Shown: positions 10,353 to 40,380 of the stretch, one piece after another
How the letters are laid out: every line of letters starts with the position of its first letter
Position numbering within the stretch: the first letter of the stretch is position 1
Assembly (NCBI GenBank): GCA_030538315.1
Contig: JAUNUF010000004.1
Coordinates: forward strand, 7,760-71,759
Direction of reading: 5' to 3'
Length of the DNA: 64,000 nucleotides
Source: Propionibacteriaceae bacterium
GTDB taxonomy: Bacteria > Actinomycetota > Actinomycetes > Propionibacteriales > Propionibacteriaceae
The notes under the pieces: generated by a model
The model's input: the letters and a program-made list of their open reading frames with translations, nothing else
What the model was told of the DNA's origin: nothing
The model's database searches: none
Program-made: the position numbers and the translations under genes

Positions 10353-11624
10353 ATGAGGAAACTTCTATTGGGCGCCGTTGCGCTGAGCTCAGCGGCACTC
10401 CTCGCAGCATGCGGCGGGGCGGCCACGCCCACCACCGCCACCACCACCGAGGGCACCACCACCGCCACCACCGGCACCACCGCCCCGGCACCCGCGGGCA
10501 GCGATGCCACCATCGTGATCTGGACCGACGCCGAACGCGAGGGCGTCATCAAGGCCCAGGCCGAGCGGTACACGGCTGACACCGGCGCCAACGTCACCGT
10601 CGTGCAGAAGAACTTTGAGGATCTGCGCAACGACTTCATCGCGCAGGTCCCCACCGGAGAAGGCCCCGACATCACCATCGGCGCCCACGACTGGCTGGGC
10701 GCCCTGGTCACCGCAGGAGTGGTGGACAGCGTGGATCTGGGAGACCGCGCCGCCGAGTTCGAGAAGGTGGCCTTGGATGCCATGACCTACGACGGCCAGC
10801 TCTACGCCATGCCCTACTCCATGGAGACCGTCGCCCTCATCCAGAACACCGACATGGTGGGCACCGAAGCGCCCGCCACGTGGGACGAGATGATCCAGCG
10901 CGGCAAGGAAGCCGCTGGCGCCGAGCGCCCATTCGTCATCACCACGAACGGAGAAACCGGTGATGGCTACTACATGTACGGTTTCCAGACGTCTTTCGAC
11001 GCTCCTGTATTCGTGCAGGACTCCTCCGGTTCCTACACCAGCGAAGTGGGCATGAAGGGCGCTCCCGGCGAAGCCTTCGCGCAGTGGCTGTACGACAACG
11101 GCAGCAAGGGCACCGGCTACCTGTCCACCACCATTGACTACGACATCAACAACGAGCTCTTCAGCACCGGCAAGGTCCCCTTCACGGTGCAGGGCCCGTG
11201 GTCCATCCCGTCCTACGCCGACATCAACGTAGTGGTCAACCCCATCCCCTCAGCAGGTCCGTCTCCCGCAGGCCCGTTCGTCGGCGTACAGGGCTTCTAC
11301 CTCAGCTCACAGAGCGCCAACCCCCTGCTGGCACAGGATTTCCTGATGAACTACCTGGGCACCGAAGAGGGTCAGCGAGCGCTCTATGAGGCCGATCCTC
11401 GGCTGCCCGCGCTGACGGTCATCGGCGAGAGCGTTGCCGACGACCCGATCATCGCCGGCTTCCTCGCCTCCGCCCAGAACGGCGTACCCATGCCGAGCAT
11501 CCCCGAAATGGGTGCGGTGTGGGACTTCTGGAATGCCGCCGAATCGCAGATCATCAACGGGGCCGAGCCGAAGGCCACCTGGAACACCATGATCACCAAC
11601 CTTGAGGCGTCCCTCGCGGGCTGA
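10353..11624 (+). CDS. CUT1 sugar ABC transporter substrate-binding lipoprotein (MalE-like)
   Basis: Lipobox LLAACGG, a Thr-rich linker, and a family-1 SBP body (GPDITIGAHDWLG, AMPYSMETVALI). Confidence 0.85.
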   Translation: MRKLLLGAVALSSAALLAACGGAATPTTATTTEGTTTATTGTTAPAPAGSDATIVIWTDAEREGVIKAQAERYTADTGANVTVVQKNFEDLRNDFIAQVPTGEGPDITIGAHDWLGALVTAGVVDSVDLGDRAAEFEKVALDAMTYDGQLYAMPYSMETVALIQNTDMVGTEAPATWDEMIQRGKEAAGAERPFVITTNGETGDGYYMYGFQTSFDAPVFVQDSSGSYTSEVGMKGAPGEAFAQWLYDNGSKGTGYLSTTIDYDINNELFSTGKVPFTVQGPWSIPSYADINVVVNPIPSAGPSPAGPFVGVQGFYLSSQSANPLLAQDFLMNYLGTEEGQRALYEADPRLPALTVIGESVADDPIIAGFLASAQNGVPMPSIPEMGAVWDFWNAAESQIINGAEPKATWNTMITNLEASLAG

Positions 11625-14202: not shown

Positions 14203-14221
14203 CGAACCGACCCCTGTCACA

Positions 14222-14277
14222 GCTCCGTAACATCTGCTAAAGTAATGGTTCATTCACTTTTTCAGATGTTACGGAGC
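14222..14277. promoter_or_regulatory. Candidate HipB operator/promoter: 15-bp perfect inverted repeat around an AT-rich spacer
   Basis: GCTCCGTAACATCTG (14222-14236) and CAGATGTTACGGAGC (14263-14277) flank a 26-nt AT-rich spacer. The element ends 7 nt before the hipB ATG. Confidence 0.6.
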
Positions 14278-14283
14278 CATGAC

Positions 14284-14541
14284 ATGACGGTGGTGGAACT
14301 GGGCAACGCCATCCGTGAGCGGCGCGTCGAGCTGGGCCTCACCCAGACCGACGTCGCCGCACAGGCGGGAACGTCGCGCCGCTGGCTGATCGAGCTGGAG
14401 GCAGGGCACCCCAACGCCCAACTCCACAAGGTGCTGAGTGTCCTGCACGCCCTCGAACTCGACGTCAGCCTGCACCCGGCCAGCCAGCTACCCCCTGCGC
14501 GCACCGAGTTGGACGACTTCGTGGAGAGCTTCGTCTCATGA
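14284..14541 (+). CDS. hipB: XRE-family HTH antitoxin (HipB-like)
   Basis: HTH LGLTQTDVAAQAGTSRRWLIELEAG. ATGA overlap with hipA. Start is taken at the ATG at 14284, downstream of the inverted repeat. Confidence 0.7.
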   Translation: MTVVELGNAIRERRVELGLTQTDVAAQAGTSRRWLIELEAGHPNAQLHKVLSVLHALELDVSLHPASQLPPARTELDDFVESFVS

Positions 14542-18868: not shown

Positions 18869-19831
18869 TCACTTGTAGCGCACGATGTTGTTGAACACCC
18901 ACTCGTCGCGCTTGACGGTGTAGGTGTAGCCACCGCCCGCCTTGGGCGTGGCGCTGACCACATCGGTCTTGATGAAGGATCGGCAAGCGTTGGTGCCCGT
19001 CTCTGCGGTGTTGCACTCGGTCTTCCACACCCGGTCCTTGATGGTGTGCTCACGCGGCACGACGAGCGGGTTCTGGCCCCAGAGGCTCCGCGCCATGGGC
19101 GCGTACGTGAGGTTGTTGAACGTCCAGCCCGTCACCCGCTCGTACTTGCCCTTGACCGTCTGCACCTGAGTCGCCCAGATCTCGGTGCGGCACCGCTGCG
19201 TCTGCGAGTACGGCTCACACGCCACCTTCCACAGGCGATTGTTGAGCGCGAAAACGCCAGCCTTCGAGTAGACCTCGTCGTCCTTGGCGGGGTTGGTGGG
19301 ATTGACCCCGGCGGTGACCGACGCCAACCACTGGGCGCCCGAATCAAACACCGTGCCGCCGTCGGTCAGCGGGCCCTTGTAGAAGTTGACGGTGGCGTAC
19401 AGCTCCGAGCCCTTCAGAACGGCACCCACGGAGATCAGGTCGTAGTTGGGTTCGAGGAGGTTCTCGCGGTGGCCCTTGGAGGCCATCCAGGCGCGCATCA
19501 CTTCACCCACCGGATCATCGAAGCCGATGTTCCAGCCCACGTTCTCGCCCCAGGCCGTTGCCCCAGCGAACCGGAAATCCGAGTTGTGGCTGATCCTGCC
19601 GGCCTTCTGCATGGAGAGGGACCACGGCTGCGCAATCTGGGCCGCCGGCTTGGGCACGAACCGCAACGGCTTGAGGTTGTGTTCCTTGCGCAGCGCGTTG
19701 TGCGCGTCGATCAGTTTGGCGATGGTGGCGGCGTTGGCCTTCTGCGACGCCTCGTCGGCCTGCGCTGAGGGGGCCACGAGGCCCGTCAACGCGATGGCAG
19801 CGGCGAACATGAGGGCGAGCAGTCTCTTCAC
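18869..19831 (-). CDS. Secreted CAP/SCP (PR-1-like) domain protein with C-terminal Cys-containing tandem-repeat module
   Basis: Signal peptide [28 protein letters not shown] motifs (HNSDF, GENVG, GHRENLL), and a C-terminal 124 aa homologous to the tail of the 25898-28363 protein. Confidence 0.8.
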   Translation of the reverse strand: MKRLLALMFAAAIALTGLVAPSAQADEASQKANAATIAKLIDAHNALRKEHNLKPLRFVPKPAAQIAQPWSLSMQKAGRISHNSDFRFAGATAWGENVGWNIGFDDPVGEVMRAWMASKGHRENLLEPNYDLISVGAVLKGSELYATVNFYKGPLTDGGTVFDSGAQWLASVTAGVNPTNPAKDDEVYSKAGVFALNNRLWKVACEPYSQTQRCRTEIWATQVQTVKGKYERVTGWTFNNLTYAPMARSLWGQNPLVVPREHTIKDRVWKTECNTAETGTNACRSFIKTDVVSATPKAGGGYTYTVKRDEWVFNNIVRYK

Positions 19832-25875: not shown

Positions 25876-25897
25876 ACCGTCCATCTTGGGGGACAAC

Positions 25898-28363
25898 ATG
25901 AGAAAAACGCTCCTACTATTGCTTTCAGCGGCACTCCTGGTCAGCATCGCGGGGTTCACCCGCGCTGGCGCGCAAACCACGCCTCGGCAACGGGTCAGCA
26001 TCGCGTTGATCGGGGACTCATACACAGCCGGCAACGGCGCAGGGCAGTACGACAAGGTAAAGGGCGCCTACCGCAGCGCACGCAACTGGGGCAACGTGTA
26101 TGCCCGTTGGCTCAACGATCAAGGAGCCCATGCCAACCTTGTCAACCTGGCGCACAGCGGCTACACGACCGACCAGATCCTCGCCATCCAGGTGCCGCAG
26201 GTTTCCACGGCTTCGGATCTGGTGTTGTTCACCGCGGGAGGCAACGACGTCAAATTCGAGCAGATCGTGACCCGCTGTTTTGGCGTTGGGTACCGGGATC
26301 CCGTCCTGTGCCGCGACCACGTCGAGGATGCGCGTGCCAATCTCGACAAGGTGAGGTCCGGCACCTTGGCTGTCCTCCGCGCCCTTGAGGCTCGCCTCTC
26401 CCCTGGCGCCCAGGTGGTGTTCGTCGGCTATCCGCTGCTGGCGCTGCACCACCCCGGGTATCGGTTGAGCAAGTGCGTGCAACGCAACCGGTTCGGGGTG
26501 TGCACCGAGACCTTCCGTTATGAGGCCGCCACCGAGGTGCGCAAACTGGGGGTGGAAGCCAACCGGCTGCAGGCCACAATGGTCGAGGGGTGGAACCGCA
26601 CCTCCAGCCTCAAGGTGACCTTCGTCGACGCCCAGGGAAAGTTCGATGGTCACGAGCCGTACTCATCGGCGGCTCTGGACAATAGGTATCGGTGGATCAA
26701 CGAACTGCTGGAAACCGAGGGGCAGGTCCGCAATCGTGCCACCGGCGTGGTTTCCAGCCGCGTCAGCGCCGACAAGAACAACTTCTACCACCCCAACATT
26801 GAAGGGCACCTCCAGCTCGGGTGGTTGCTGGGAAGCAAGATCGGCATCCCGCAATCGGCCAAGCCCATCCTGCCAAGCAGCGGCTCCGCCATCGATCTCG
26901 CGTTCGTGATCGACACCACCGGCTCGATGGGGGGCAGCATCGCCAGCGTCCAACAAGAGGTGCGCAACATCGTGGCCGCCGTCGAAGCATCGTCGGTATC
27001 AGCGCGGTACAGCCTGGCCACCTACCGCGACCATCCCGAGTCGACGGGGGACCCGGGCGACTACGCAAGCAAGCTCCGCGTGCCCTTCACCACGGACAGC
27101 GAACAATTGATCACTGAACTCAACGCGCTCACCGTTGATGGCGGCGGAGATTGGGAGGAGACCGTCTACAGCGGCGCGATGGCCGGGCTGAACCAGCCAT
27201 GGCGCGACGGCGTCAAGAAGGTGATGCTCATCCTGGGCGACGCTCCAGCCAAGGACCCAGAGCCCATCACGGGCTACACCGCCGAATCCGTGGCCCGCGT
27301 GGCCTTTGAGATTGATCCCGTGGAGGTCTACGCGATCGACACCGGGGATTTGCTACAGAACGGCGTGGACCGCCTCGTCGAACTATCCGGCGGCACCGCC
27401 CACGAGGTGCACAGCGGTGAGGCAGGCGAACGAATCCTCGAAGCCATCGAGACGATCGCCGACAAGCCCTTCGGCTGGGTGCAGGGGCCCACCGTGCTCA
27501 CCGTCGGTGAGGAATTCACCTTCGACGCACGCGGCTCGTACGCCATGGAGGGCGAGATCGTGCAGTACGAGTGGGACTTCAACGGCGACGGCGAGTTCGA
27601 CCTGACCGAAACCACCGGCGAGGTCACCCGCTCCTTCTCGGCGCCCTTCGACGGGTTCATGGGTGTACGGGTCACCGACGAACGCGGCCAACAGTCGATG
27701 GGCAGCACCGCGCTCACCGTCGTGGCTGGGTGTTCCGAGGGCGAGTTGGTTGGCGACGAGTGCGTGACCTTCGACCCGTACCCCACCGAGGACCTCCCCG
27801 ATGTGTTTGAGGAGGTCGTCGAGGACGAGCCCGCCCCTGAGCCGCCAACGGACCCGGCCCCGGAGCCGGAGCCGACCACTTCACCGAGCCCAGAGCCCAC
27901 GCGTGACTCATCGCCGGGCCCCGAGCAAGGCCTGCCCGGATTCACCCCTGCAGCGCCCTACACGTTGAGCGGCACGCACAACGTCAACGGGCGCCTGTGG
28001 CGCACGGGCTGCGAGAAGTACTCGGCGACGGTGAGGTGCCGCACGGAGATCGAGGCCACCGTCGTGAAGCGCGGGGCAACCGGCTACCACCTGGCCAAGG
28101 AGTTCACGTTCAACAACCTGACGTACCTGCCCTCCAAGCGTGACCTGTGGACGGGCAACCCGTTGGCGCAGGCCGGCGAGTGGAAGGCGAAGGACGGCCG
28201 ACGGTGGCGCACCGAGTGCGGCACGCCCAAGACCGGGCGTGACGGATGCCGCAGCTACGTGATCGCTTCAGTGGTCGAGGCCACGGCCCGGCCAGGAGGT
28301 GGCTACACCTACCGGGTGGTCGACAAGTGGGTGTTCAACAACATCGTGATGTTCTCTCGGTGA
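25898..28363 (+). CDS. Secreted multidomain protein: SGNH/GDSL hydrolase - VWA - PKD - Pro/Glu-rich linker - Cys-containing tandem-repeat module
   Basis: Signal peptide MRKTLLLLLSAALLV. GDSL block IALIGDSYTAGNG with a late DGHEP..HP block. VWA MIDAS-like DLAFVIDTTGSMGG. PKD-like YEWDFNGDGEFD. C-terminal 127 aa are homologous to the CAP protein tail. Confidence 0.8.
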   Translation: MRKTLLLLLSAALLVSIAGFTRAGAQTTPRQRVSIALIGDSYTAGNGAGQYDKVKGAYRSARNWGNVYARWLNDQGAHANLVNLAHSGYTTDQILAIQVPQVSTASDLVLFTAGGNDVKFEQIVTRCFGVGYRDPVLCRDHVEDARANLDKVRSGTLAVLRALEARLSPGAQVVFVGYPLLALHHPGYRLSKCVQRNRFGVCTETFRYEAATEVRKLGVEANRLQATMVEGWNRTSSLKVTFVDAQGKFDGHEPYSSAALDNRYRWINELLETEGQVRNRATGVVSSRVSADKNNFYHPNIEGHLQLGWLLGSKIGIPQSAKPILPSSGSAIDLAFVIDTTGSMGGSIASVQQEVRNIVAAVEASSVSARYSLATYRDHPESTGDPGDYASKLRVPFTTDSEQLITELNALTVDGGGDWEETVYSGAMAGLNQPWRDGVKKVMLILGDAPAKDPEPITGYTAESVARVAFEIDPVEVYAIDTGDLLQNGVDRLVELSGGTAHEVHSGEAGERILEAIETIADKPFGWVQGPTVLTVGEEFTFDARGSYAMEGEIVQYEWDFNGDGEFDLTETTGEVTRSFSAPFDGFMGVRVTDERGQQSMGSTALTVVAGCSEGELVGDECVTFDPYPTEDLPDVFEEVVEDEPAPEPPTDPAPEPEPTTSPSPEPTRDSSPGPEQGLPGFTPAAPYTLSGTHNVNGRLWRTGCEKYSATVRCRTEIEATVVKRGATGYHLAKEFTFNNLTYLPSKRDLWTGNPLAQAGEWKAKDGRRWRTECGTPKTGRDGCRSYVIASVVEATARPGGGYTYRVVDKWVFNNIVMFSR

Positions 28364-29635: not shown

Positions 29636-30721
29636 CTAGGAGCGGTCCGGCGCGACCTCTGGCGGAGCAGCGCTGCCGCCCTCGCTCTCCACTGGAGCGA
29701 AGGTGGGTGCTCCCCCGTCCAGCCCGGCCTCTTCGCGGGAGAGGCTGACGAAGTTGAGCGCGTCGTAATCCCCGGCCTCCCACACAACGGCGAGCCTGCC
29801 GTCGGCCATCTCCGCGGCAACTGAGTATGCCGCCGCGCCGGAGTCGAGCAGCACCGGGGCGCCCCAGGTTGCGCCGCCGTCGGCGCTGGCGCGGAGGGTG
29901 AGCCGCCGTCGTTCCTGGGGGTCGTCCAGCAGTGTGCAGACGATGTGCTCGCCCCACAGGGCGAGGCCGCCGTTGCAGGCGGGATCCACCAGGTCGTCGT
30001 GGGGCACGGGCGCTGAGAACGTGACGGCGCCATCGTCGGAGAGCGCCCACCGACGACGCGGCCTGGCGCGGGCGTGCAGCAGGACGCGACCATCGGGGCG
30101 CTCCAGCACCTTGTTCTCGTCGCAATCCGGCCCGATGCGCTCCCCCAACTGCCACGAGGCGCCGGAGTCGTCGGAATAGGCCATCACGGCGTGATGTTCC
30201 TCGGCCCCCGTGCGGAGCACGAACGGCTGCACCAGACGACCAGAACGGAGCGCGATGCCGTTGCCGGAGGAGGCGAACATGCCGGTGACGTCGTGGGGCT
30301 TGAGCTGGGCGGTGAGGTCGCGGTGGGTCCAGGTGTCGCCGTCGTCGATGGATGTCGCCAGCCAGAGCCTGAGCCCCTCACCGTCCGGGCCGGCATCCGC
30401 GGTGAAGAAGGATCGGCCGGTGGAGCCCACGTACCAGCAGAAGATGGTGCCGGCGGGGTCGACGATGAAGCTCGCGTCGCCGAAGCCGCCCTCCTCCGTG
30501 CGGCGGCGCAGCACGCGCACGTCTGACCAGGTGGTGCCGTTGTCGTCGGAGGCGCGGTAGACGATGTCGAAGGGACCCGGCAGATCGCGCCAGTCGGCCC
30601 GCACGTCCCACGCGACGATGACCCGCCCCGTCGGCGTGACGGCGAGGGCCGGAATCCGGTAGCAGGGAGCGTCGAACGCTGAGCCTTCGAGCGGGGTTCC
30701 GGTGGTCGCGAGTGTGATCAT
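29636..30721 (-). CDS. nanH: Exo-alpha-sialidase (GH33), catalytic beta-propeller only, no signal peptide
   Basis: YRIP motif (APCYRIPALAV) and four Asp-boxes (SDDNGTTW, SIDDGDTW, SDDSGASW, SADGGATW). Start is the ATG at 30721 (MITLATTG...). Confidence 0.9.
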   Translation of the reverse strand: MITLATTGTPLEGSAFDAPCYRIPALAVTPTGRVIVAWDVRADWRDLPGPFDIVYRASDDNGTTWSDVRVLRRRTEEGGFGDASFIVDPAGTIFCWYVGSTGRSFFTADAGPDGEGLRLWLATSIDDGDTWTHRDLTAQLKPHDVTGMFASSGNGIALRSGRLVQPFVLRTGAEEHHAVMAYSDDSGASWQLGERIGPDCDENKVLERPDGRVLLHARARPRRRWALSDDGAVTFSAPVPHDDLVDPACNGGLALWGEHIVCTLLDDPQERRRLTLRASADGGATWGAPVLLDSGAAAYSVAAEMADGRLAVVWEAGDYDALNFVSLSREEAGLDGGAPTFAPVESEGGSAAPPEVAPDRS

Positions 30722-30838
30722 GGTCGCCTTCCTACGCTGATTGAGCCGACCGCATCCGAGCTTGCGAGGATCGCGATCGTGTCGCTTGTACTGAGCCACG
30801 CTCAGCGACGAAGTCGCCAGCGTGAGTCGAAGTGAAAT

Positions 30839-30856
30839 CCCTAGACGTGTCTAGGG
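30839..30856. promoter_or_regulatory. 8-2-8 perfect palindrome CCCTAGAC-GT-GTCTAGGG upstream of nanH
   Basis: Read directly; lies ~120 bp upstream of the sialidase start codon. Confidence 0.45.
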
Positions 30857-30925
30857 GCGGGTTGGGAGCCAAGTTGTGGTTGCGGTGGCGAGCACGCTTG
30901 GCGGCCCTTCGTCGGATCACGCTGC

Positions 30926-31020
30926 TCCTTCGTCGCAGGCGATCCGCTCAGGGACCAGCGTGACGGTCCTTCGTCGCAGGCGATCCGCTCAGGGTCCAGC
31001 GTGACGGTCCTTCGTCAGCA
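30926..31020. repeat. 41-bp tandem direct repeat, about 2.3 copies (TCCTTCGTCGCAGGCGATCCGCTCAGGGACCAGCGTGACGG)
   Basis: Units at 30926-30966 and 30967-31007 differ at 1 position. A partial third copy starts at 31008. Related, in reverse complement, to the start of the 107-bp unit at 40100. Confidence 0.85.
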
Positions 31021-31047
31021 TCCGGCGACTTCGTCGCGGGACGCTCC

Positions 31048-31728
31048 TCAGGAACCGGCGACGGCGTCGGCGAACCAGCCGGTGATCGTGGCCGGATGCG
31101 TGATGGCGGTGCCGACGACGACGCTCCAGGCGCCGCGACGCATCGCCTCGGCGGCGACCTCAGGAGTGTGCACCCGACCCTCGACGATCACCGGACGATC
31201 AGCCTGGGCCAGGATCTCGTCGACGGCCTCCCAGTCGACGCCCGGCGTCTTGGGGCGCTCACCCGAGTAACCCACGAGCGTGGTGCCAATCAGGTCTGCG
31301 CCCGCCTCCTGGGCCGCGAGCGCGTCACCGGCAGACCCACAATCCGCCATGATCAGAACATCCGGGTACTCGGCCTTGAACTCGGCGATCGTCTCGGCCA
31401 ACGTCCGCTCGTCGGGGCGCTCGCGGCGCGTGCCGTCGATCGCAACGATCTCGACGCCAGTCTGCGCAACCTCGAGGCAGTCCTTCAGCGTGGGCGTGAT
31501 GTAGACGCCGGTGTCACCGACCTTCACCAGGCCGATCACCGGCACGTCGACGCGACCCTTGATGGCGCGCAGATCATCAAGACCCTTGGCCCGGATGGCA
31601 GCAGCGCCGCCGCGGACGGCGGATTCCGCCACCTGGGCCATGGTGTTCGGGTCGAGCATCGGCTCGCCCGGGTAGGCCTGGCAGGAGACGACGAGTTTGC
31701 CCTTCAGGGCGTCAGCGATGGCGTTCAT
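31048..31728 (-). CDS. nanE: N-acetylmannosamine-6-phosphate 2-epimerase
   Basis: KLVVSCQA motif and full NanE TIM-barrel pattern. ATGA overlap with nanK. Start is the ATG at 31728. Confidence 0.9.
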   Translation of the reverse strand: MNAIADALKGKLVVSCQAYPGEPMLDPNTMAQVAESAVRGGAAAIRAKGLDDLRAIKGRVDVPVIGLVKVGDTGVYITPTLKDCLEVAQTGVEIVAIDGTRRERPDERTLAETIAEFKAEYPDVLIMADCGSAGDALAAQEAGADLIGTTLVGYSGERPKTPGVDWEAVDEILAQADRPVIVEGRVHTPEVAAEAMRRGAWSVVVGTAITHPATITGWFADAVAGS

Positions 31729-32642
31729 GAAACCTCTCCGAAAACGTGTGCGGCGGCGCCAACCAGCGCCGCGGAGTTGCCCAATTGGGCCTTGAGGACG
31801 GGGATGTCGGCCAGCACGGGAATCAGCTCCGCCCGGATGGTGTCGCGCAGCGGCGTCCACCACACGGGGCCAGCGTCGGCGACCCCACCGCCGATGACCA
31901 CAGCAGCCGGATCCACCACGGTGACCAGCCCGGCGATCGCCTTGCCCAGCGCAACCGCAGCAGCCTGCACGACGGCGAGCGCGTCGTCGTCATGGCCCCC
32001 GGCGGCGCGCTCCATGATCTGGCGGCCGCTGGCGGAATCCCCGCCCGCGGCCACATACTGTCGTTCGATCGCGGGACCAGCCGCGATGGCCTCGAGGTGG
32101 CCCAAGCGACCACACGGGCACCGCAGGGCCTCAGCCCCGGGCGTCGGGACGTGGCCCATCTCGCCGGCCACGCTGTGCGCACCGGTGCGGAGCTTCCCAT
32201 CGAGCACCAGCGCGCCGCCCACCCCGGTGCCAACGGCCACCATGAGCAGCGAATCCAGCCCTTGGGCCGCACCGAACCGAAACTCGCCGACGGCGTGCGC
32301 GTCCACATCGTTCAGCACAGCAATGCGGCGCTCACCGCCCCAACCCAGCCGCTCGCGCAGCCCGGAAACGACGTCCGTGCCCACCCAATCGCGGAACGTG
32401 TCCGTGGAGGAGATGATGCGGCCAGCGCGCGAGTCAACGACCCCGGCGGTGCCGATGCCCAGCCCCACCACGTCGTCGGCGGCAACTTGCCGCACCAGAT
32501 CCGCCACCACGTCGAGCACGGCTGCGCCACCCTCGGCAGCAGGGGTGGGCGCGGAGACCACCTCGCCCAGCACCCCGTCAGAGGACACGAGCGAGACGGC
32601 GGTCTTCGTACCGCCCAGATCGACCCCTACCGCATAGCTCAT
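31725..32642 (-). CDS. nanK: ROK-family kinase, N-acetylmannosamine kinase by context
   Basis: VGVDLGGTKTA ATP motif and ROK zinc motif (CPCGRLGHLE). Located between nanA and nanE. Confidence 0.8.
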   Translation of the reverse strand: MSYAVGVDLGGTKTAVSLVSSDGVLGEVVSAPTPAAEGGAAVLDVVADLVRQVAADDVVGLGIGTAGVVDSRAGRIISSTDTFRDWVGTDVVSGLRERLGWGGERRIAVLNDVDAHAVGEFRFGAAQGLDSLLMVAVGTGVGGALVLDGKLRTGAHSVAGEMGHVPTPGAEALRCPCGRLGHLEAIAAGPAIERQYVAAGGDSASGRQIMERAAGGHDDDALAVVQAAAVALGKAIAGLVTVVDPAAVVIGGGVADAGPVWWTPLRDTIRAELIPVLADIPVLKAQLGNSAALVGAAAHVFGEVS

Positions 32643-33556
32643 GAGAGCAGGTTAACCTCGCGCAGGATCTGCTCGATGGCAGGCGTGCAGCTCTCGTCGA
32701 GCGGACGAATGGGCGCGGGCATGGCGGCCGAGGCGATGATGCCGAGGCTGGCCATGGCCTGCTTGAAGGCGCCGATGCCGCCAGCGTCGCCGGACATGCC
32801 CTTGGGCACGAAGGCGATCTCGAACAGCTGCGTGATGCGATCCTGCTCGTCGCGGGCCTTGGCCCAGTCGCCGGCCTCGGCGGCTTCCCAGAGGCGGGTG
32901 TAGCCGGCAGGGTCCACGTTGCCCAGGCCGGGCACGGCACCGTCGGCGCCGAGCAGCAGCATGCCGTCGACCATCACCTCGTGGCCGGTGAACAGCTCCA
33001 GCGGGGAGCCGGCCTTCTTGTTGGCCAGCACGAGGCGGCGGAAACCGACGTCGTCACCGGAGGAATCCTTGACGCCGCGGATGACGCCTTCCTGGCCGAG
33101 GCGAACGAGCATGTCGACGGCGAGGTAATTGTGGACGCGAACGGGCACGTTGTACGCGTAGACGGGCACGGAGACGCCGGCGGCGACCATGCGGAAGTGC
33201 TCCTCGATCTCCGCCATGTCGTTGAGGGCGTACAGCGGGGAGGTGACGACGATGGCGTCAGCCCCGGCGGCGACCGCGCGCTGGGCCTCCTCCACCATGC
33301 GGGGAGCGGTCAGCTCGGGGGTACCCACGAGCACCGGCACGCGGCCGGCCACGCGCTCCACGGTGCGGCGGGTGATCTCGTCGCGCTGCGAGTTGGTGAG
33401 GTAGGCAACCTGGCCGGAGGAGCCCAGCACGAACAGGCCGTGCACGCCGCCGTCGATCAGGTGGTCAACAACCTTGTCGAGGCCGTCGTAATCAACGGTG
33501 CCATCGGGGTTCATGGGGGTGACGACGGGGGGAACGATGCCACGCAGCTTCTGCAT
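32639..33556 (-). CDS. nanA: N-acetylneuraminate lyase (DHDPS/NAL family)
   Basis: GIVPPVVTPM, GSSGQ, and the Schiff-base lysine context GVKDSSGD. nan operon context. Confidence 0.85.
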   Translation of the reverse strand: MQKLRGIVPPVVTPMNPDGTVDYDGLDKVVDHLIDGGVHGLFVLGSSGQVAYLTNSQRDEITRRTVERVAGRVPVLVGTPELTAPRMVEEAQRAVAAGADAIVVTSPLYALNDMAEIEEHFRMVAAGVSVPVYAYNVPVRVHNYLAVDMLVRLGQEGVIRGVKDSSGDDVGFRRLVLANKKAGSPLELFTGHEVMVDGMLLLGADGAVPGLGNVDPAGYTRLWEAAEAGDWAKARDEQDRITQLFEIAFVPKGMSGDAGGIGAFKQAMASLGIIASAAMPAPIRPLDESCTPAIEQILREVNLLS

Positions 33557-33589
33557 GATCTATCTCTTCTTTCGGGGTGTTGTTGAGAG

Positions 33590-34377
33590 TCAGACGAGGG
33601 AGGGCACGGCGCTCAGGAGAGTGCGCGTGTACTCCTCTTGGGGGTTGTTGAACACTTGATCTGCCGGGCCGGTCTCGATGATCTTGCCGGCGAGCATCAC
33701 CGCCATGCGGTCTGAGATGAACCGCACGGTGTTGATGTCGTGGCTGATGAACACCAGGCCGAGGCCCAGTTCGTCCTTCAGATCCGTGAGCAGGTTGAGC
33801 ACCTGGGCGCGCACCGAAACGTCGAGGGCCGACGTCGGCTCGTCCGCGATGATCACGTCTGGCTCGAGCGCCAGAGCGCGGGCGATGGCCACGCGCTGAC
33901 GCTGACCGCCGGAGATCTGGCGGGGCAGCACGTCGAGCGCAGATTGCGGGAGGCCCACCACGTCGAGCAGGTGCTTGACGCGCTTCTCGCGCTCCTCCGG
34001 GGTGCCCACGCCGTGGACCTTGAAGGGGTCCAGCAGCGCGTCGCGCACCAGCATGCGGGGGTTGAGGGCCGTGGCCGGATCCTGGAACACGACGGAGACG
34101 GCGCGCCCCAGCTTCTTGCGGCCATCGGCGTTGAGCTTCATCTCTTCGCCGAAGTAGCGCACGGTGCCGCTGGTGACGGGCTGGAGACCCACCATCACCC
34201 GGGCCAGCGTGGACTTGCCACAGCCGGATTCGCCGACGAGGCCCAGCGTCTCGCCCTTGCTGACGGAGACGCTGACGCCGTTGACGGCGTGCACTCGGTC
34301 TGGGCGGAACAGCTTGCCGGTGCGGGCTTTGTGGATGACGTGGACGTCTTCGAGTTCGACGACAGGCGTGGTGCTCA

Positions 34378-34378
<1 letters not shown>
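33590..34378 (-). CDS. Opp/Dpp-type ABC transporter ATP-binding protein (DppF-like)
   Basis: Walker A GESGCGKST, signature ISGGQRQR, Walker B IIADEPTSALD. The ATG at 34378 sits 6 nt after GGAGGG. Confidence 0.85.
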
Positions 34379-36455
<2,077 letters not shown>

Positions 36456-36456
<1 letters not shown>

Positions 36457-37418
36457 CAGATGCTCCTGATCCGCGGGTTGACCATGACGTAGAGGAGATC
36501 CACGATCAGGTTGACGACGATGAAGGCGATCGCGACCGTGATGGTCACGCCCTGAACGATGTTGACATCGTTGCGGGTGATGCCCTGGAAGATGAGTTGG
36601 CCCATGCCCTGGATGTTGAAGATCATCTCGATGACGACGGCGCCACCCATGAGGTAGCCGACGCGCAGGCCCAGCACGGTGAGCGGGGTGATCAGCGCGT
36701 TGCGCAGCACGTTGCGGGCGATCACCACAGGCTTGGGGATGCCGGCGCCGATGGCGGTGCGCACGTAGTCGCGGTCCAGTTCCTCAACCATGGCGGTGCG
36801 CACCACGCGGATGAGCGAGCCGGCCACGGGGATGGCCAGCGCCAGCGACGGGAGGAACATGGTGTTGGCGTAGCCAGCCGGGTCCTGCGTGAAGGGGATC
36901 CAGTTGACGACGGCGGGGAACCAGCCGGCGCCGCCGGGGATGTTGCCGAACGCCTGGATCATGAGGAGGGCCAGCCAGAACGACGGCGTGGCCAGCGAGG
37001 CGATCGAGATCACGCGGATCAGCTGATCCGGCCAGCGGTCGCGGTAGAGGGCGGCGATGACGCCGAGCACCAGAGCGAGCACGACGGCGATGGCCAGGCC
37101 AATGAAGGTCAGCTGCAGCGTCTTGGGGAAGTTCTCGGCCACCATCTGGGAGATGGGCACGCCGGTGAAGGATTCGCCGAGGTCGAACTGGACCAGACCG
37201 CCGAGGTAGCGGGCGAACCGCACCAGCATGGGGTCGTTGAGCCCGTTGGCTTCGCGATAGTTTTCGAGGGCCTGCAGCGACGCGCTTTCACCCAGCGCGA
37301 GGCGGGCCGGATCTGCGCTGGAGAACGACATCACGATGAACACGAGCAGCGTGACGCCGAACACCATGATCGGCAGCGCAATGAGGCGCCGACCAAGTAG
37401 CCGGATCAGATTGGACAC
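36456..37418 (-). CDS. Opp/Dpp-type ABC permease (DppB-like)
   Basis: 6-TM BPD_transp_1 pattern. The GTG start at 37418 is preceded by AAGAGGAG; the longer track ORF is rejected. Confidence 0.85.
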
Positions 37419-37489
37419 TTCTTCTTCGCTCCTCTTCGAGCGGGTTGGCCGCCGTTGCGGATTGCGTAGTTGGTGGGCACGGCTCCGCA

Positions 37490-37580
37490 CGGGACCCCCT
37501 GGTGAGGGGGTCCCGGCAGATTACCGAAGGGTGCCGCTCGTCGGCGGCACAGCACAGGGCCCCGGGAGTGCGGGGCCCTG
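37490..37580 (-). promoter_or_regulatory. Three consecutive GC-rich stem-loops between the SBP and permease genes
   Basis: CGGGACCCCC/GGGGGTCCCG (37490-37515), GTGCCGC/GCGGCAC (37531-37550), CAGGGCCCC/GGGGCCCTG (37555-37580). Confidence 0.55.
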
Positions 37581-37588
37581 GCGGGTTA

Positions 37589-39259
37589 TCAGAGCGTCGA
37601 GCCGACGCCGACGAAGGACAGGCCGGTCACTGCGATCGGCTTGAAGTCCTGCAGGGTTTCGCCGTTGAAGGCGGTGGGGGACTTGCGGTGGAAGATGGGG
37701 TACAGCGGCGCGTTCTCCGACACGATGTCGAAGATCTCGTGCCAAGCACCCATCTGGGCGTCGCCGGTGGACTCAGCAGCGGTACCGAGGAGCTCCTGGA
37801 CCTTGTTGTAGGAGTCCTGGCCCTTCCAGTGCATGCGGGAATCGGTCCACACGTCGCCGGCGTACCACCAGCGGATGAGGAGGTCAGCGTCGTCACCGAA
37901 GACGGAGGGGTCGCCGGGGGCCATGACGATGTCGAACGAGCCAGCGTTGCCGTCGATGGTGCCGTAGACGTCCGAGGACTTCTTCTCTTCGTAGCTGACG
38001 GTCAGGCCAGCAGCCTCGAGGGACTCCTTGACCATGGGGCGCACAGCGGAGAACCAGCCGTGATCCGAGGACAGGAGGCGAACTTCCTTGAGACCGGTCT
38101 CGGCGAAGAGCTCCTTGGCCTTCTCCATGTTGCCGGCGTACTGGACCTTGGCTTCCTTGAACGCGGGGTGCGCCTCGTGCACGAAGCTCTTGGCCGGAGC
38201 AGCGAGATCGGACATGCCGACCTTGCAGATCTGGTCGTAATCCAGGGCGTAGAGCACACCCTGGCGGTTGCGCACGTCGTCCATGGGGGCGGAGCCACAG
38301 TTGAACATGAGGAAGAGGAGGCCAAAGCCCTGCTGGGCGGCAACTTCCTTGGTCTGAGCCAGCTGGGCCAGGTTGGCGGCGGGCACCGAGTCGATGGCCT
38401 GGACGGAATCCGAGCTCAGGGCGTTGGTGCGGGTGGAGTCATCGGGGATGATCTGCCATTCCATGGTGGCCACGCGTGCGGGCTGGGTGCCGGTGTAGTC
38501 GTCGAAGCGCTCGAACTTGACGATCTGCGAGGAGGCGCCGTTGTCGGTCATCTTGAAGGGGCCGGTGCCAACGGGGTTGAGGTCGAACGCCTTGACGTCG
38601 GCCTCGACGAGGGCCTTCGGCACGATCTTCACGACGGCGAGACGCTCGGCCACCAGGGAGAAGGGGTACTTCGTCTTGATGGTGACGGTGTTGGCGTCCT
38701 TGGCGGTGACGGAGTCAATGAAGGGGATGAACGCGGCGTACAGCGAACCGTTGTCGGGGTTGAGCACGCGCTCGAAGGAGAACACGACGTCGTCAGCGGT
38801 GACAGGGTTGCCGTCGTGGAACACGGCACCGTCGCGCAGGGCGACTTCCCAGGTGGTGTCGTCAACCTGCGAGGGCAGTGCAGCGCCCAGGCCGGGGAAG
38901 ATCTCACGGGTGGCGGGGTGCAGCTCGGTGAGGCCCTCCATGGTGTGCCAGTTGGCGGCCAGGGTGAGCGCAGCGGTGGTGCTCATGGGGTCGTAACCGT
39001 TGGTGCCCAGCTCGTAGGAGATGGCGGCGGTGATCTTGCCTTCGCCACCGGCCTCAGCCGGAGGGGCGGCCGCGGTGGTGGTTTCGGTGGCGGCCGGGGT
39101 GGTCTCGGTACCAGCGGGGGTGGTGCCGCCGGTGGTGGGGGTGGTGCCAGCCGGGGTGCAGGCTGCCAGCGAGCCGGCGAGTGCGGCAGCTGCGCCGAAC
39201 GAGCCAGCGAGCTTGAACATGCTGCGACGCGAGGTGGGCGTGTTCATGGGGTTCGTCAT
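37589..39259 (-). CDS. Family-5 (Opp/Dpp-type) substrate-binding lipoprotein, candidate sialic-acid/sialoglycan binding component
   Basis: Tat-like SRRSMFKLAG followed by lipobox LAAC, a Thr-rich linker, and an SBP_bac_5 body. The ATG at 39259 sits 7 nt after AAGGAG. Confidence 0.85.
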   Translation of the reverse strand: MTNPMNTPTSRRSMFKLAGSFGAAAALAGSLAACTPAGTTPTTGGTTPAGTETTPAATETTTAAAPPAEAGGEGKITAAISYELGTNGYDPMSTTAALTLAANWHTMEGLTELHPATREIFPGLGAALPSQVDDTTWEVALRDGAVFHDGNPVTADDVVFSFERVLNPDNGSLYAAFIPFIDSVTAKDANTVTIKTKYPFSLVAERLAVVKIVPKALVEADVKAFDLNPVGTGPFKMTDNGASSQIVKFERFDDYTGTQPARVATMEWQIIPDDSTRTNALSSDSVQAIDSVPAANLAQLAQTKEVAAQQGFGLLFLMFNCGSAPMDDVRNRQGVLYALDYDQICKVGMSDLAAPAKSFVHEAHPAFKEAKVQYAGNMEKAKELFAETGLKEVRLLSSDHGWFSAVRPMVKESLEAAGLTVSYEEKKSSDVYGTIDGNAGSFDIVMAPGDPSVFGDDADLLIRWWYAGDVWTDSRMHWKGQDSYNKVQELLGTAAESTGDAQMGAWHEIFDIVSENAPLYPIFHRKSPTAFNGETLQDFKPIAVTGLSFVGVGSTL

Positions 39260-39278
39260 TAAACTCTCCTTGTTATCG

Positions 39279-39291
39279 GACATCCGATGTC
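39279..39291. promoter_or_regulatory. Palindrome GACATC-C-GATGTC in the divergent SBP / GntR-regulator promoter region
   Basis: Perfect 6-1-6 palindrome, read directly. Candidate GntR-family operator. Confidence 0.45.
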
Positions 39292-39382
39292 TGACCTACA
39301 ATCAGTATTGCACTTTATATCGCGTTACACTCGTGCCGCTCAAGAAAAATGCGCGAAAACCTCGAAAGGTTGCCGAATCGTG

Positions 39383-40096
39383 ATGAACAGCCACGAGCCG
39401 CAGCGGCTCCGCCAGACGATCCAGGCGGTCAAGGAGCACATCCTGCGGGAGAAGCTCAAGCCAGGCGACGCCATGCCCACTGAGCTGCAGCTGATCGAGT
39501 CGCTGGGCGTTTCGCGCTCCAACCTGCGGGAGGCGATCCGCACCCTCGTGACGCTCGACATCGTCGAGGTGCGGCACGGCACCGGCATGTTCGTGGGCCA
39601 AATGTCGCTGCGGCCGCTGGTGGAGGGCCTTGCCTTCAAGGGCGTCGTGCTGCCGGGCGAGGATTACGAGACGCTGCGCCAGATCGTCGAAGTGCGCATT
39701 GGTCTTGATCATTCGCTGGGCCCCGGCATCGTGGAACGCCTCAAGGGTCAAGAGACTCCTGTCCTGATCCGCGTGTGCGAGGAAATGGCGGAGAAGAAGG
39801 CCGCCGGTGAGAACTTCGCCGCAGAGGACCGGATGTTCCACCAGACGCTCGCCGAGGCGCTCGACAACGAGTTGTACGCGCAGCTCGTGGCCGCGTTCTG
39901 GGACGTCCACACGCTGGTGGGCCCGCGCTTGGGCGTGCCGACCCCACGAGACCTCGACGAGACCGTGCAGGCGCATCGCGAGATGCTGGATGCCGCCGTG
40001 GCCGGAGACCTCGCGGCGTATCACACCGCCGTCGACCGCCATTACGCCCCGCTGCTTCGGGTGCTCAACTCCACCAAAAAGGTCGCCGGCTCCTGA
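39383..40096 (+). CDS. nanR: GntR/FadR-family transcriptional regulator (NanR by context)
   Basis: Winged HTH LPTELQLIESLGVSRSNLREAIRTL plus an FCD-type C-terminal domain. Divergent from the nan transporter operon. Start is the ATG at 39383. Confidence 0.8.
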   Translation: MNSHEPQRLRQTIQAVKEHILREKLKPGDAMPTELQLIESLGVSRSNLREAIRTLVTLDIVEVRHGTGMFVGQMSLRPLVEGLAFKGVVLPGEDYETLRQIVEVRIGLDHSLGPGIVERLKGQETPVLIRVCEEMAEKKAAGENFAAEDRMFHQTLAEALDNELYAQLVAAFWDVHTLVGPRLGVPTPRDLDETVQAHREMLDAAVAGDLAAYHTAVDRHYAPLLRVLNSTKKVAGS

Positions 40097-40099
40097 GGA

Positions 40100-40294
40100 G
40101 CTCACGAAGGACGCATCACTGGTCCCTGAGCGTGCCGCGCCCGAGGAACGAGGGCCGCGGCACGACGAAGGGCCGCCAGGCTATCCGACTCCCCAACCCG
40201 CCGGATGCTCACGAAGGACGCATCACTGGTCCCTGAGCGTGCCGCGCCCGAGGAACGAGGGCCGCAGCACGACGAAGGGCCGCCAGGCTATCCG
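40100..40294. repeat. Tandem duplication: 88-bp hairpin-containing unit repeated with a 107-bp period
   Basis: 40100-40187 and 40207-40294 differ at 1 position. Each unit holds the stem GTGCCGCG-CCC...GGG-C-CGCGGCAC. Confidence 0.9.
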
Positions 40295-40311
40295 CCTCTG
40301 AGCTGCCGCTC

Positions 40312-40365
40312 AAAGATAGGGGCGGTTTTGGCAAGGTAGTCACTGCCAAAACCGCCCATATCTTT
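40312..40365. terminator. Bidirectional terminator-like hairpin (22-bp arms, 1 mismatch, 10-nt loop)
   Basis: AAAGATAGGGGCGGTTTTGGCA ... TGCCAAAACCGCCCATATCTTT lies between the convergent nanR and GH29 genes, with A/T runs at both feet. Confidence 0.7.
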
Positions 40366-40380
40366 CGCTTGAGCCTCAGC

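Follow-up and report, generated by a model that had tools for sequence, protein, structure and literature searches.

Our analysis suggests, with a probability of roughly 75%, that the repeats at the two ends of the nan gene block are arrays belonging to a single dispersed family of structured units of about 68 nt, located at gene ends in Tessaracoccus-like Propionibacteriaceae, and that the nan locus they flank is unexceptional. The block lies in a 64-kb window, by which we mean the whole stretch of DNA analysed, and its genes are arranged as follows.

29636 to 30721, minus strand: BNR-repeat sialidase gene (361 aa), outside the island as first claimed and directly 3′ of nanE in all relatives.
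31048 to 31728, minus strand: nanE (226 aa), with its stop codon TGA at 31048–31050.
31725 to 39283, minus strand: nanK (ROK), nanA (DHDPS family), ABC ATPase, fused permease-ATPase, permease and SBP_bac_5 binding protein genes.
39383 to 40096, plus strand: GntR/FCD regulator gene (gntR), stop codon TGA at 40094–40096; the length of 237 aa and the start at 39383 follow from the choice of start codon.

The 3′ ends of nanE and gntR carry arrays that have five sequence blocks in common, oppositely oriented on the chromosome, and the shared blocks listed in the initial annotation were recovered. In the window, the 20-mer GTCGCCGGYTCCTGAGGAGC is confined to 31043–31062 (minus strand) and 40082–40101 (plus strand), 19/20 identical, where about 0.02 matches per window would be expected by chance with 3 mismatches permitted. 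GCCGGATGCT[C/G]ACGAAGGAC is shared by 31007–31027 and 40199–40219 (95%), and the CTGG[T/A]CCCTGAGCG block was verified in both arrays. CGACGAAGGGCCGCCA was found at 30899–30914 (minus strand), 40163–40178 and 40270–40285, and CCCAACCCGCC at 30856–30866 (minus strand) and 40192–40202. VAGS* likewise forms the terminal residues of both NanE and the GntR/FCD regulator. The 88-nt unit proposed at the right end was not upheld, the actual tandem period being 107 nt (x1.9, 40100–40298). The arms of the two arrays are about 75% identical, with a longest identical run of 16 nt, and within the 64-kb window the repeat family is confined to the nanE-end and gntR-end sites. The arrays are mutually inverted only because transcription of nanE (minus strand) and gntR (plus strand) runs in opposite ways. 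The left array, 3′ of nanE, contains the following features.

31043 to 31062, minus strand: nanE gene end with the 5′ module of a first, partial unit (GTCGCCGGTTCCTGAGGAGC), from sequence comparison.
31025 to 31037, minus strand: mini-hairpin GCGAC-GAA-GTCGC with a GAA triloop, read from the sequence.
30926 to 31016, minus strand: 41-nt tandem repeat x2.2, 98% identical, made of partial units (5′ module, 5′ half-stem, GACGAAGGA).
30890 to 30960, minus strand: complete unit of about 68 nt, CTGGTCCCTGAGCG-GATCGCCTGC-GACGAAGGA-GCAGCGTGATC-CGACGAAGGGCCGCC (covariance model R1, 76.2 bits; hairpin −16.5 kcal/mol, z = −4.4).
30839 to 30866, minus strand: CCCAACCCGCC block, then CCCTAGACACGTCTAGGG, a hairpin that resembles a terminator and ends in a T-rich tail, from the terminator scan.
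30799 to 30824, minus strand: degenerate partial unit CACGCTGG-CGACTTCGTCG-CTGAGCG, read from the sequence and matching an inverted repeat.

R1 also aligns 31004–31060 (minus strand) to the unit with 28.4 bits. The 41-nt x2.2 array forms the operon spacer between nanE and the sialidase gene, and the degenerate partial unit at 30799–30824 lies 5′ of the sialidase start. The right array, 3′ of gntR, is composed as follows.

40082 to 40101, plus strand: gntR gene end with a variant of the 5′ module (GTCGCCGGCTCCTGAGGAGC), from sequence comparison.
40100 to 40298, plus strand: 107-nt tandem repeat x1.9, 97% identical, from the tandem-repeat search.
40117 to 40186, plus strand: complete unit 1 (R1, 81.6 bits; inner hairpin −21.3 kcal/mol, z = −3.9).
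40224 to 40293, plus strand: complete unit 2 (R1, 74.1 bits).
40312 to 40365, no strand assigned: palindrome with 22-nt arms and AT-rich flanks (−33.6 kcal/mol, z = −8.5).

In each 107-nt copy, one complete unit is accompanied by an additional ACGAAGGAC hairpin module and a CCCAACCCGCC linker, and the array lies between gntR and the fucosidase gene, which form a convergent pair. The palindrome at 40312–40365 is a bidirectional intrinsic terminator for these two genes and is distinct from the repeat family.

The conserved unit of about 68 nt, present at 40117–40186, 40224–40293 and 30890–30960 (minus strand), is built of GGTCCCTGAGCG, then a stem that varies and has a tip of the GAA or CUUG type, and then the conserved 3′ module CGACGAAGGGCC.CCGCAGCG. 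Its 5′ module, (C)TGGTCCCTGAGCG, is also conserved and contains a TGA. The inner stem varies in sequence and keeps its pairing, and the apical tip reads GA-S-GAA-S'-GA or GA-GCTTGC-GA. In an alignment of 36 units fitted to R1, in which the metagenome copies are not independent because many are near-identical, 84.1% of cells were paired, against 73.6% in shuffles and 29–59% in slid controls. Compensatory changes occurred in 10 of the 14 pairs of these units, a score reached by none of 500 shuffles. The stems covary, and the loops and internal loops are conserved in sequence. All unit variants fold into a hairpin (−12 to −25 kcal/mol), the stabler fold was that of the sense strand in 21 cores and that of the complement in 10 (p = 0.005), and subfamilies with identical stems are present. 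Rfam gave no match at gathering thresholds; the sub-threshold hits (sR40, and mir-548 on the terminator palindrome) were spurious. Our analysis showed neither terminal inverted repeats, the unit ends being joined only by a 5-bp outer stem, nor a consistent target-site duplication at the unit junctions. The family is apparently undescribed so far.

With R1, units were found at three loci, unrelated to one another, in 20 kb of T. massiliensis sequence, 3′ of nanE in T. lubricantis, 3′ of gntR in L011 (a 94% relative), and on metagenome contigs (28 strong units over 21 contigs). In T. massiliensis, nanE is followed by just one unit and a unit lies 3′ of an amine oxidase gene, L066 has one flanked by the genes for a short-chain dehydrogenase and an ABC ATPase, and further units on metagenome contigs adjoin many other, unannotated genes. 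The host organisms are Tessaracoccus species. GGATGCTSACGAAGGAC, TCCTGAGGAGC and CCCAACCCGCC were found in no other family member among the 91 loci, so the two arrays of the window are each other's closest relatives. GGTCCCTGAGCGAGCGAAGCGAGNCGAAGGG-type relatives were seen on L063 and L086, which hints at a possible broader superfamily among other high-GC actinobacteria.

The units nearly always have the orientation of the upstream gene and start a few bases from its stop codon. For 13 of the 25 units with a co-oriented 5′ neighbour, the gene end falls −15 to +6 nt from the unit start, the genes on metagenome contigs being called by a crude GC3 criterion with some errors. Facing units, one per gene, occur at convergent gene pairs. 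Two exceptions were noted: the L066 unit is antisense to both adjoining genes, and copy A of T. massiliensis sits in a divergent promoter region. The unit junction lies 0, 11, 13, 14 or 18 nt from the stop codon, and the direct junctions read tagCTGGTCCC, tagTTGGTCCC, tgaCCGGTCCC and tgaTTGCTCCC. Presence/absence polymorphism was also found: L001 has an empty nanE–sialidase junction of 8 bp, and the gntR spacers of L012 and L014 have no units.

A repeat family that overlaps stop codons and rewrites C-termini had been suggested at first, and this finds support in substance, since the TGA of the unit is the stop of unrelated genes in several organisms. It has this role in at least eight cases (L091, L052, L074, L057, L075, T. 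lubricantis nanE, and nanE and gntR of the window). When the 5′ module is in frame, its TGA ends the gene and the last two or three codons are repeat-derived, with tails such as ...GP* and ...AGS*. Close NanE orthologs have the tails ANA* or VQA* (GCC AAC GCC TGA). The nanE of the window ends in GGT TCC TGA GGAGC, the same as the gntR-end variant, and its last two codons are unlike those of all close orthologs and like the repeat module. Within the shared VAGS tail, V-A belongs natively to the families of both proteins, and distant NanE homologs can also end in 'AVAG[AS]'. A repeat origin is clear for only about 14 of the 20 bases in common.

We propose that the nanE copy was copied from the gntR-end variant or from a third member of that lineage-specific subfamily. 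Its arrival would have replaced the nanE tail ...NA* or ...QA* by ...GS* and split a tight nanE–sialidase junction, and both arrays would later have expanded by recent local tandem duplication between the internal short repeats of the unit. Transcribed units would form very stable 3′-UTR hairpins, which probably either hinder 3′-to-5′ RNA decay or serve as weak termination sites assisted by a factor. The units are not followed by a U-tract, and the terminator scan called none of them, only the hairpins at 30839–30856 and 40320–40357. Because the U-tract is missing and separate terminators stand downstream of the arrays, a terminator role of the units is not indicated by sequence.

The closest analogues of the family appear to be the Mycobacterium TRIT motif and REP elements. 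TRIT ('tuberculosis Rho-independent terminator') is a multi-copy Mycobacterium motif conserved in sequence and hairpin, tied to gene termini at very narrow positions that reach into coding sequence and overlap stop codons, and without a classical U-tract (Gardner et al. 2011, PMC3152330). It is palindromic, mostly bidirectional, reported from Mycobacterium alone, and has been proposed as a non-canonical terminator or 3′-end processing site (PMC3152330). The present family is similarly actinobacterial, multi-copy, conserved in sequence and hairpin, free of a classical U-tract, and concentrated at gene termini, where it begins at or inside the stop codon. In contrast to TRIT, known here by description, its sequence is unrelated, its flanks are asymmetric and its strand bias is strong; it occurs in Propionibacteriaceae, often in tandem arrays of whole and partial units.

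Like REP/BIME elements of Proteobacteria, the units are short, dispersed extragenic hairpin repeats, often after gene ends and in facing pairs between convergent genes, and each is a short imperfect palindrome forming a stable hairpin (−12 to −25 kcal/mol). REPs can stabilise upstream mRNA, and affect translation when near the stop codon. However, the 5′ flank of the unit is GGTCCCTGAGCG, with no GTAG-type tetranucleotide, and its loops and flanks are conserved while the stems covary, whereas REP stems are conserved. In mycobacterial interspersed repetitive units (MIRUs), the ends of the repeats extend over the upstream gene's stop codon. The 41-nt x2.2 array resembles them as a tandem array of direct repeats (about 40–100 nt) in an actinobacterial spacer of co-directional operon genes (nanE–sialidase), but the spacer that holds the 107-nt x1.9 array separates two convergent genes, gntR and the fucosidase gene. 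MIRUs are described as having small ORFs that also overlap the downstream start codon, while the window arrays have the stop overlap only and no such ORF or start overlap; they end at least 118 nt before the sialidase start, and no start codon follows the SD-like motifs. The family is, unlike MIRUs, defined by a covarying hairpin. With MITEs it shares presence/absence polymorphism in close relatives, but not terminal inverted repeats or target-site duplication. The units also differ from canonical intrinsic terminators, in which a GC-rich hairpin is followed by a U-tract, as in the separate hairpins at 30839–30856 and 40320–40357.

Conserved flanks around a variable-stem hairpin, and copies that directly abut tga or tag, would also suit a DNA mobile element, namely a hairpin that is REP/RAYT-like or derived from IS200/IS605 and is mobilised by a single-strand HUH (Y1) transposase. 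Insertion would then be in fixed orientation beside TGA/TAG, stop codons being the main tolerated targets in a 70% GC genome, and RNA folding would be incidental. The polymorphism among relatives agrees with this, the identical-stem subfamilies suggest copying bursts, and the rare copies in other orientations or contexts fit insertion followed by selection. However, no transposase gene, RAYT (tnpA-REP) included, was noticed in the retrieved loci, clear target-site duplications and terminal inverted repeats are both missing, the sense strand is slightly but significantly stabler than its complement, and the varying unit–stop distance means that the insertion point is not fixed. We consider a mobile element possible but doubtful.

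A dedicated RNA signal that is recognised by a factor and acts at gene ends as a non-canonical terminator or 3′-end processing site without a U-tract seems an unlikely role for the unit. The conserved loops and covarying stems, the narrow position range near stop codons with strong co-orientation bias, and the analogy to TRIT (PMC3152330) speak for such a signal. But the unit is present at only some genes, relatives have no unit at the same loci, canonical terminators stand 3′ of the window arrays, and the tandem partial units resemble slippage products rather than designed signals.

The first reading of the nan block, as a cassette that recombination between inverted REP/MITE-like repeats had captured or moved, is one that we regard as very improbable. 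Related arrays in inverse orientation do flank a coherent 9-kb block, which has no transposase, as had been stated, and no integrase domain. However, the order fucosidase-gntR-SBP-permeases-ATPase-nanA-nanK-nanE-sialidase is common to Tessaracoccus sp. MC1865, sp. MC1756, T. lubricantis and T. massiliensis, the wider flanks of the block match in the same genomes, and arrays at both ends were found in none of these four. This indicates that the presence of the nan block is independent of the repeats, and the nan genes occupy an ordinary chromosomal locus with conserved synteny. The supposedly self-contained module of about 9 kb has the gene content described but is not self-contained: the sialidase gene (29636–30721, minus strand), which serves this pathway too, is situated beyond the left repeat and in relatives forms one conserved gene series with the block. 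The nanE–sialidase junction is just 8 bp in the closest nanE relative (93%), and in more distant Propionibacteriaceae the two genes abut or overlap. An identity of 16 nt, the longest run shared by the arms, is probably below RecA substrate needs for homologous recombination. Presence/absence or inversion of the block exactly at the repeats together with a mobility gene, as in a bounded mobile cassette or composite element, was not found. Since the family occurs at stop codons of many unrelated genes, the window arrays do not mark a mobile cassette. The repeat is largely what the initial annotation had named as evidence against its cassette, an ordinary dispersed one that is not tied to presence or absence of the nan block, except that its preference for boundaries and orientation is strong. 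The arrays do flank nan genes, one of them upstream of the sialidase gene, but it is hardly credible that the shared sequences are a nan-regulon device (GntR/FCD operators or a sialic-acid-responsive RNA), as units also follow the T. massiliensis amine oxidase gene and adjoin the L066 dehydrogenase and ABC ATPase genes and others, relatives with the same regulon have no unit, and Rfam gave no match.

For the dispersed gene-end family that we favour, the conserved loops and covarying stems fit recognition of the unit by a protein. Tentatively, the unit could be more than a passive REP-like hairpin and be a protein-recognised element, either a stop-codon-seeking mobile element that routinely donates its TGA and so rewrites C-termini of proteins, or a U-tract-less, factor-dependent transcript 3′-end signal in Propionibacteriaceae, whose terminators are poorly understood.

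Arrays of whole and partial copies of a hairpin-forming repeat unit of about 68 nt lie at both ends of the sialic acid (nan) locus, and each array contains a tandem repeat:

30926–31016, left end, 3′ of the minus-strand nanE: 41-nt tandem repeat, 2.2 copies, 98% identical
40100–40298, right end, 3′ of the plus-strand gntR: 107-nt tandem repeat, 1.9 copies, 97% identical

The initial annotation had named five blocks common to both ends in inverse orientation, and our analysis found all five in the window, with no further copy of any of them in its 64 kb beyond the two ends. The shared 20-mer GTCGCCGGYTCCTGAGGAGC, for which about 0.02 matches are expected by chance with three mismatches allowed, is restricted to the nanE and gntR gene ends. 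The gene content was also as annotated (nanE, a ROK kinase gene, nanA, four Opp-type transporter genes and a GntR/FCD regulator gene). A sialidase (BNR) gene is located directly outside the left repeat on the same strand as nanE, and the neighbour outside the right repeat is an alpha-L-fucosidase gene.

NanE is 88% identical to that of T. massiliensis and 85% to that of Tessaracoccus sp. MC1865, and these homologs place the source organism in or near Tessaracoccus; no exact match to the window NanE was on record. One gene order, fucosidase-gntR-SBP-permease-fused permease/ATPase-ATPase-nanA-nanK-nanE-sialidase, was found in MC1865, MC1756, T. lubricantis and T. massiliensis, and the wider flanks in relatives match those of the window (PGI, LytR, MFS and SH3/VldE on one side; permeases, SBP and Aldedh on the other). 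In none of these four do arrays occur at both ends. The closest nanE relative (L001, 93%) has 8 bp between the nanE stop and the sialidase start, and in more distant Propionibacteriaceae the two genes overlap or abut. In MC1756 and T. lubricantis, gntR and the fucosidase gene are separated by about 90 nt that contain only a terminator hairpin. Since the locus is conserved without arrays in relatives, the arrays are lineage-specific insertions, and the unit varies in presence between relatives. On the left, the insertion turned a tight operon junction into a 326-nt structured spacer.

The same gene order in four Tessaracoccus without arrays at both ends contradicts the proposal that the repeats bracket an island captured or moved as a cassette. 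The mobile cassette interpretation is refuted, and the nan locus is an ordinary syntenic region for sialic acid and glycan utilisation. Recombination between the arms as a means of inverting the block was also rejected: identity between the arms is about 75%, no identical run exceeds 16 nt, and the block has a single orientation in all relatives. In MC1865 (GCA_014164715.1; positions 1460–1600 of the fetched locus), long runs of G, read as C on the opposite strand, make up most of the fucosidase-gntR spacer. Since the corresponding spacer of its sister strain MC1756 has an ordinary terminator hairpin, the runs are probably an artefact of sequencing or assembly at a strong hairpin.

Comparison of spacers in relatives gave the layout of the unit as (C)TGGTCCCTGAGCG – 5′ stem – apical motif – 3′ stem – CGACGAAGGGCC.CCGCAGCG. 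The flanks are nearly invariant, and the inner stem shows compensated changes (TCGC/GCGA, TGCC/GGCA, TGGC/GCCA, TTCGC/GCGAA, TCCGC/GCGGA and GATCGC/GTGATC). Over 36 units, in an alignment fitted to the model and with many near-identical copies, 84.1% of cells were paired vs 73.6% in shuffles, and 10 of the 14 stem pairs had changes on both sides. The observed pairing values were reached by 0 of 500 shuffles, and sliding the partner by 1–3 columns lowered pairing to 29–59%. The apical motif has three forms, GAGGAACGA, GACGAAGGA and GAGCTTGCGA. The pair at positions 3 and 7, which closes a GAA triloop, is swapped from G:C to C:G between the first two; the third form is a CUUG-type loop. The sense strand forms a slightly more stable fold than the complement (mean −24.9 vs −23.4 kcal/mol; better in 21 cores vs 10, p = 0.005). 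A hammerhead-like core (CUGA...GAA) and a C/D-box k-turn were rejected, as the core positions do not fit and the corresponding Rfam models gave no match.

In the window, a covariance model (R1) built from seven units detected four units, three of them complete; the fourth, partial one (28 bits) is the nanE gene end. Outside the window, R1 found three units in a 20-kb stretch of T. massiliensis, all at unrelated loci, one 3′ of T. lubricantis nanE, and one 3′ of gntR in L011, a 94% relative. A family-level pattern scan of the metagenome collection returned 44 stretches. Among them, 21 contigs carried 28 strong units, mostly in assemblies LFRM01 and LSQX01, and the remaining stretches were chance matches within coding DNA. 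Rfam gave no real match to the unit at gathering or permissive thresholds, and the literature searched, including that on Tessaracoccus repeats, held no description of it; the family appears to be undescribed. Relatives of the unit with the inner part GAGCGAAGCGAG(T/A)CGA (GGTCCCTGAGCGAGCGAAGCGAGNCGAAGGG...) were seen on other high-GC metagenome contigs (L063, about 6222–6289, and L086, 529–599, both minus strand), a hint of a wider superfamily beyond Tessaracoccus.

Wherever upstream sequence exists, a same-strand high-GC3 gene nearly always ends just 5′ of the unit, which makes the unit a dispersed, structured, gene-end-associated repeat. Among 25 units with a co-oriented 5′ neighbour, 13 had the stop between −15 and +6 nt of the first position; these counts are approximate, since the crude GC3 gene caller used on the metagenome contigs mislabelled the window gntR end. 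Larger distances are accounted for by preceding partial units. Typical junctions are tagCTGGTCCC, tagTTGGTCCC and tgaCCGGTCCC. In convergent gene pairs (L091, L061, L052 and L074), each gene has one unit and the two face each other. Two verified exceptions, a T. massiliensis unit (copy A) in a divergent promoter region and a unit antisense to both neighbours in L066, show that the orientation bias is strong but not absolute. Placement of copy A 3′ of a stop codon was rejected, as the ORF concerned is a spurious antisense frame of an MFS gene.

The units also donate stop codons. The TGA of the unit is the stop codon in L091, L052, L074 and L057, so that these proteins end in ...GP*. A short variant, GCTGGTTGAGCC, supplies the stop in L075 and in T. 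lubricantis nanE (...AG*), and GG[TC] TCC TGA supplies it in the window nanE and gntR (...GS*). The suggestion that the repeat rewrites C-termini at stop codons is thus supported, because the unit TGA terminates unrelated genes whose last residues are repeat-derived. Operator sites for the GntR regulator were rejected, since the unit adjoins unrelated genes. Small translated ORFs of the MIRU type in the arrays were rejected, as 107 nt, the repeat period, is not divisible by 3 and the SD-like AAGGA motifs are not followed by start codons. In T. lubricantis (L014/L017), the 80 nt 3′ of nanE repeat the native-looking end of the gene, AACGCTGGTTGAGC, three more times in tandem with periods of 18–19 nt ahead of a complete hairpin, so that here too, independently, a gene end merges into the repeat.

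NanE and the GntR/FCD regulator do both end in VAGS*, as first noted. The V-A codons, GTC GCC, are native to both families: close NanE orthologs end in GCC GTC GCC AAC GCC TGA, many NanE homologs have ...AVA.. tails, and gntR orthologs end in GTC GCC GGT TCC TGA (L011) or GTC GCC GTC TCC TGA (T. lubricantis). What is foreign to nanE is GGT TCC TGA GGAGC, a variant of the unit 5′ module, which replaces the ...NA* or ...QA* of the closest orthologs. The gntR end, which runs on into a recognisable partial unit in L011, dates back at least to the divergence of L011 from the window lineage.

Three blocks, GGATGCTSACGAAGGAC, TCCTGAGGAGC and CCCAACCCGCC, are common to the two window arrays only among 91 fetched loci, so the two arrays are each other's closest relatives. 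A 22-base exact pattern of the window-specific module (ACGAAGGACN{6,7}CTGGNCCCTGAGCG) had 0 matches in 185k species genomes and the JGI metagenomes, which indicates that the module is private to the window lineage. A census of short motifs (GACGAAGG, CTGAGCG and others) covering the window and relatives found none enriched beyond the arrays. The nanE array is inferred to derive from the gntR-end variant, or from a further copy belonging to the same lineage-specific subfamily elsewhere in the genome; GTCGCC may have provided microhomology for the copying. The unit expands locally in tandem. Internal copies are 97–98% identical vs about 75% between left and right arrays, which points to later expansion, and tandem duplication would have enlarged both arrays.

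The units would be transcribed with the upstream gene, forming stable 3′-UTR hairpins with a possible role in transcript protection or in weak attenuation of read-through. The units do not qualify as canonical terminators, since no U-tract follows them and separate terminator hairpins are located 3′ of both arrays. The bidirectional terminator palindrome at 40302–40380 gave a sub-threshold Rfam match to the animal mir-548 on both strands (about 34 bits, where gathering requires 90), a spurious match that a long hairpin with AT flanks produces.

A serious rival explanation is that the unit was spread by an HUH/Y1 transposase (REP/RAYT- or IS200/IS605-like), with stop codons as tolerated targets. 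REP/BIME elements share some features with the unit, but the unit lacks their defining GTAG, and no RAYT gene, their other defining feature, was noticed in the fetched loci. MIRU likewise shares some features, but its ORF overlapping a downstream start codon fails. The nearest analogue is TRIT of Mycobacterium, with 147 copies conserved in sequence and structure and a peak about 8 nt inside the coding end (PMC3152330). Both cluster on stop codons, but TRIT is palindromic and bidirectional whereas our family is strand-biased, and TRIT is unrelated in sequence and restricted to Mycobacterium. From these shared and failed features we class the family among gene-terminus hairpin repeats, outside any named family.

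Other features were observed in the window. An AT-rich inverted repeat at 14215–14284 (29-nt arms, 86% complementary, TGTCACAGCTCCGTAACATCTGCTAAAGT ... ACTTTTTCAGATGTTACGGAGCCATGACA), conspicuous at about 70% GC, lies in a spacer after a TGA, overlaps a possible ATG, and could be an operator or terminator. Three collinear inverted matches (73–96%) between 18881–19144 and 28085–28348 link a CAP-domain gene (18869–19831, minus strand) with the C-terminal part of a large GDSL-lipase/VWA/PKD gene (25886–28363, plus strand), and these secreted proteins appear, from the matches, to share a paralogous C-terminal domain. The latter gene lies between the MFS transporter and SH3/VldE genes. That position is taken by a small KDPG-aldolase-like gene in MC1865 and T. 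massiliensis, so a gene appears to have been replaced locally. CCA/CCG-rich short tandem repeats at 10429–10500 (periods 3, 9, 12 and 21 nt) probably encode a proline-rich linker.

For the nan locus the result is deflationary, as there is no mobile cassette. The unit family itself is worth recording, as it lacks an Rfam model, covaries clearly in its stems and is unusual in where it sits. The family is also a practical caveat for annotating gene ends and for reading 'inverted repeats' around gene clusters in high-GC genomes. It alters gene products by supplying stop codons and replacing the last residues of proteins, and it alters operon architecture, as at the nanE-sialidase junction. It also offers a second independent system, in another actinobacterial family, in which to ask what makes conserved hairpins build up at the gene ends of actinobacteria.
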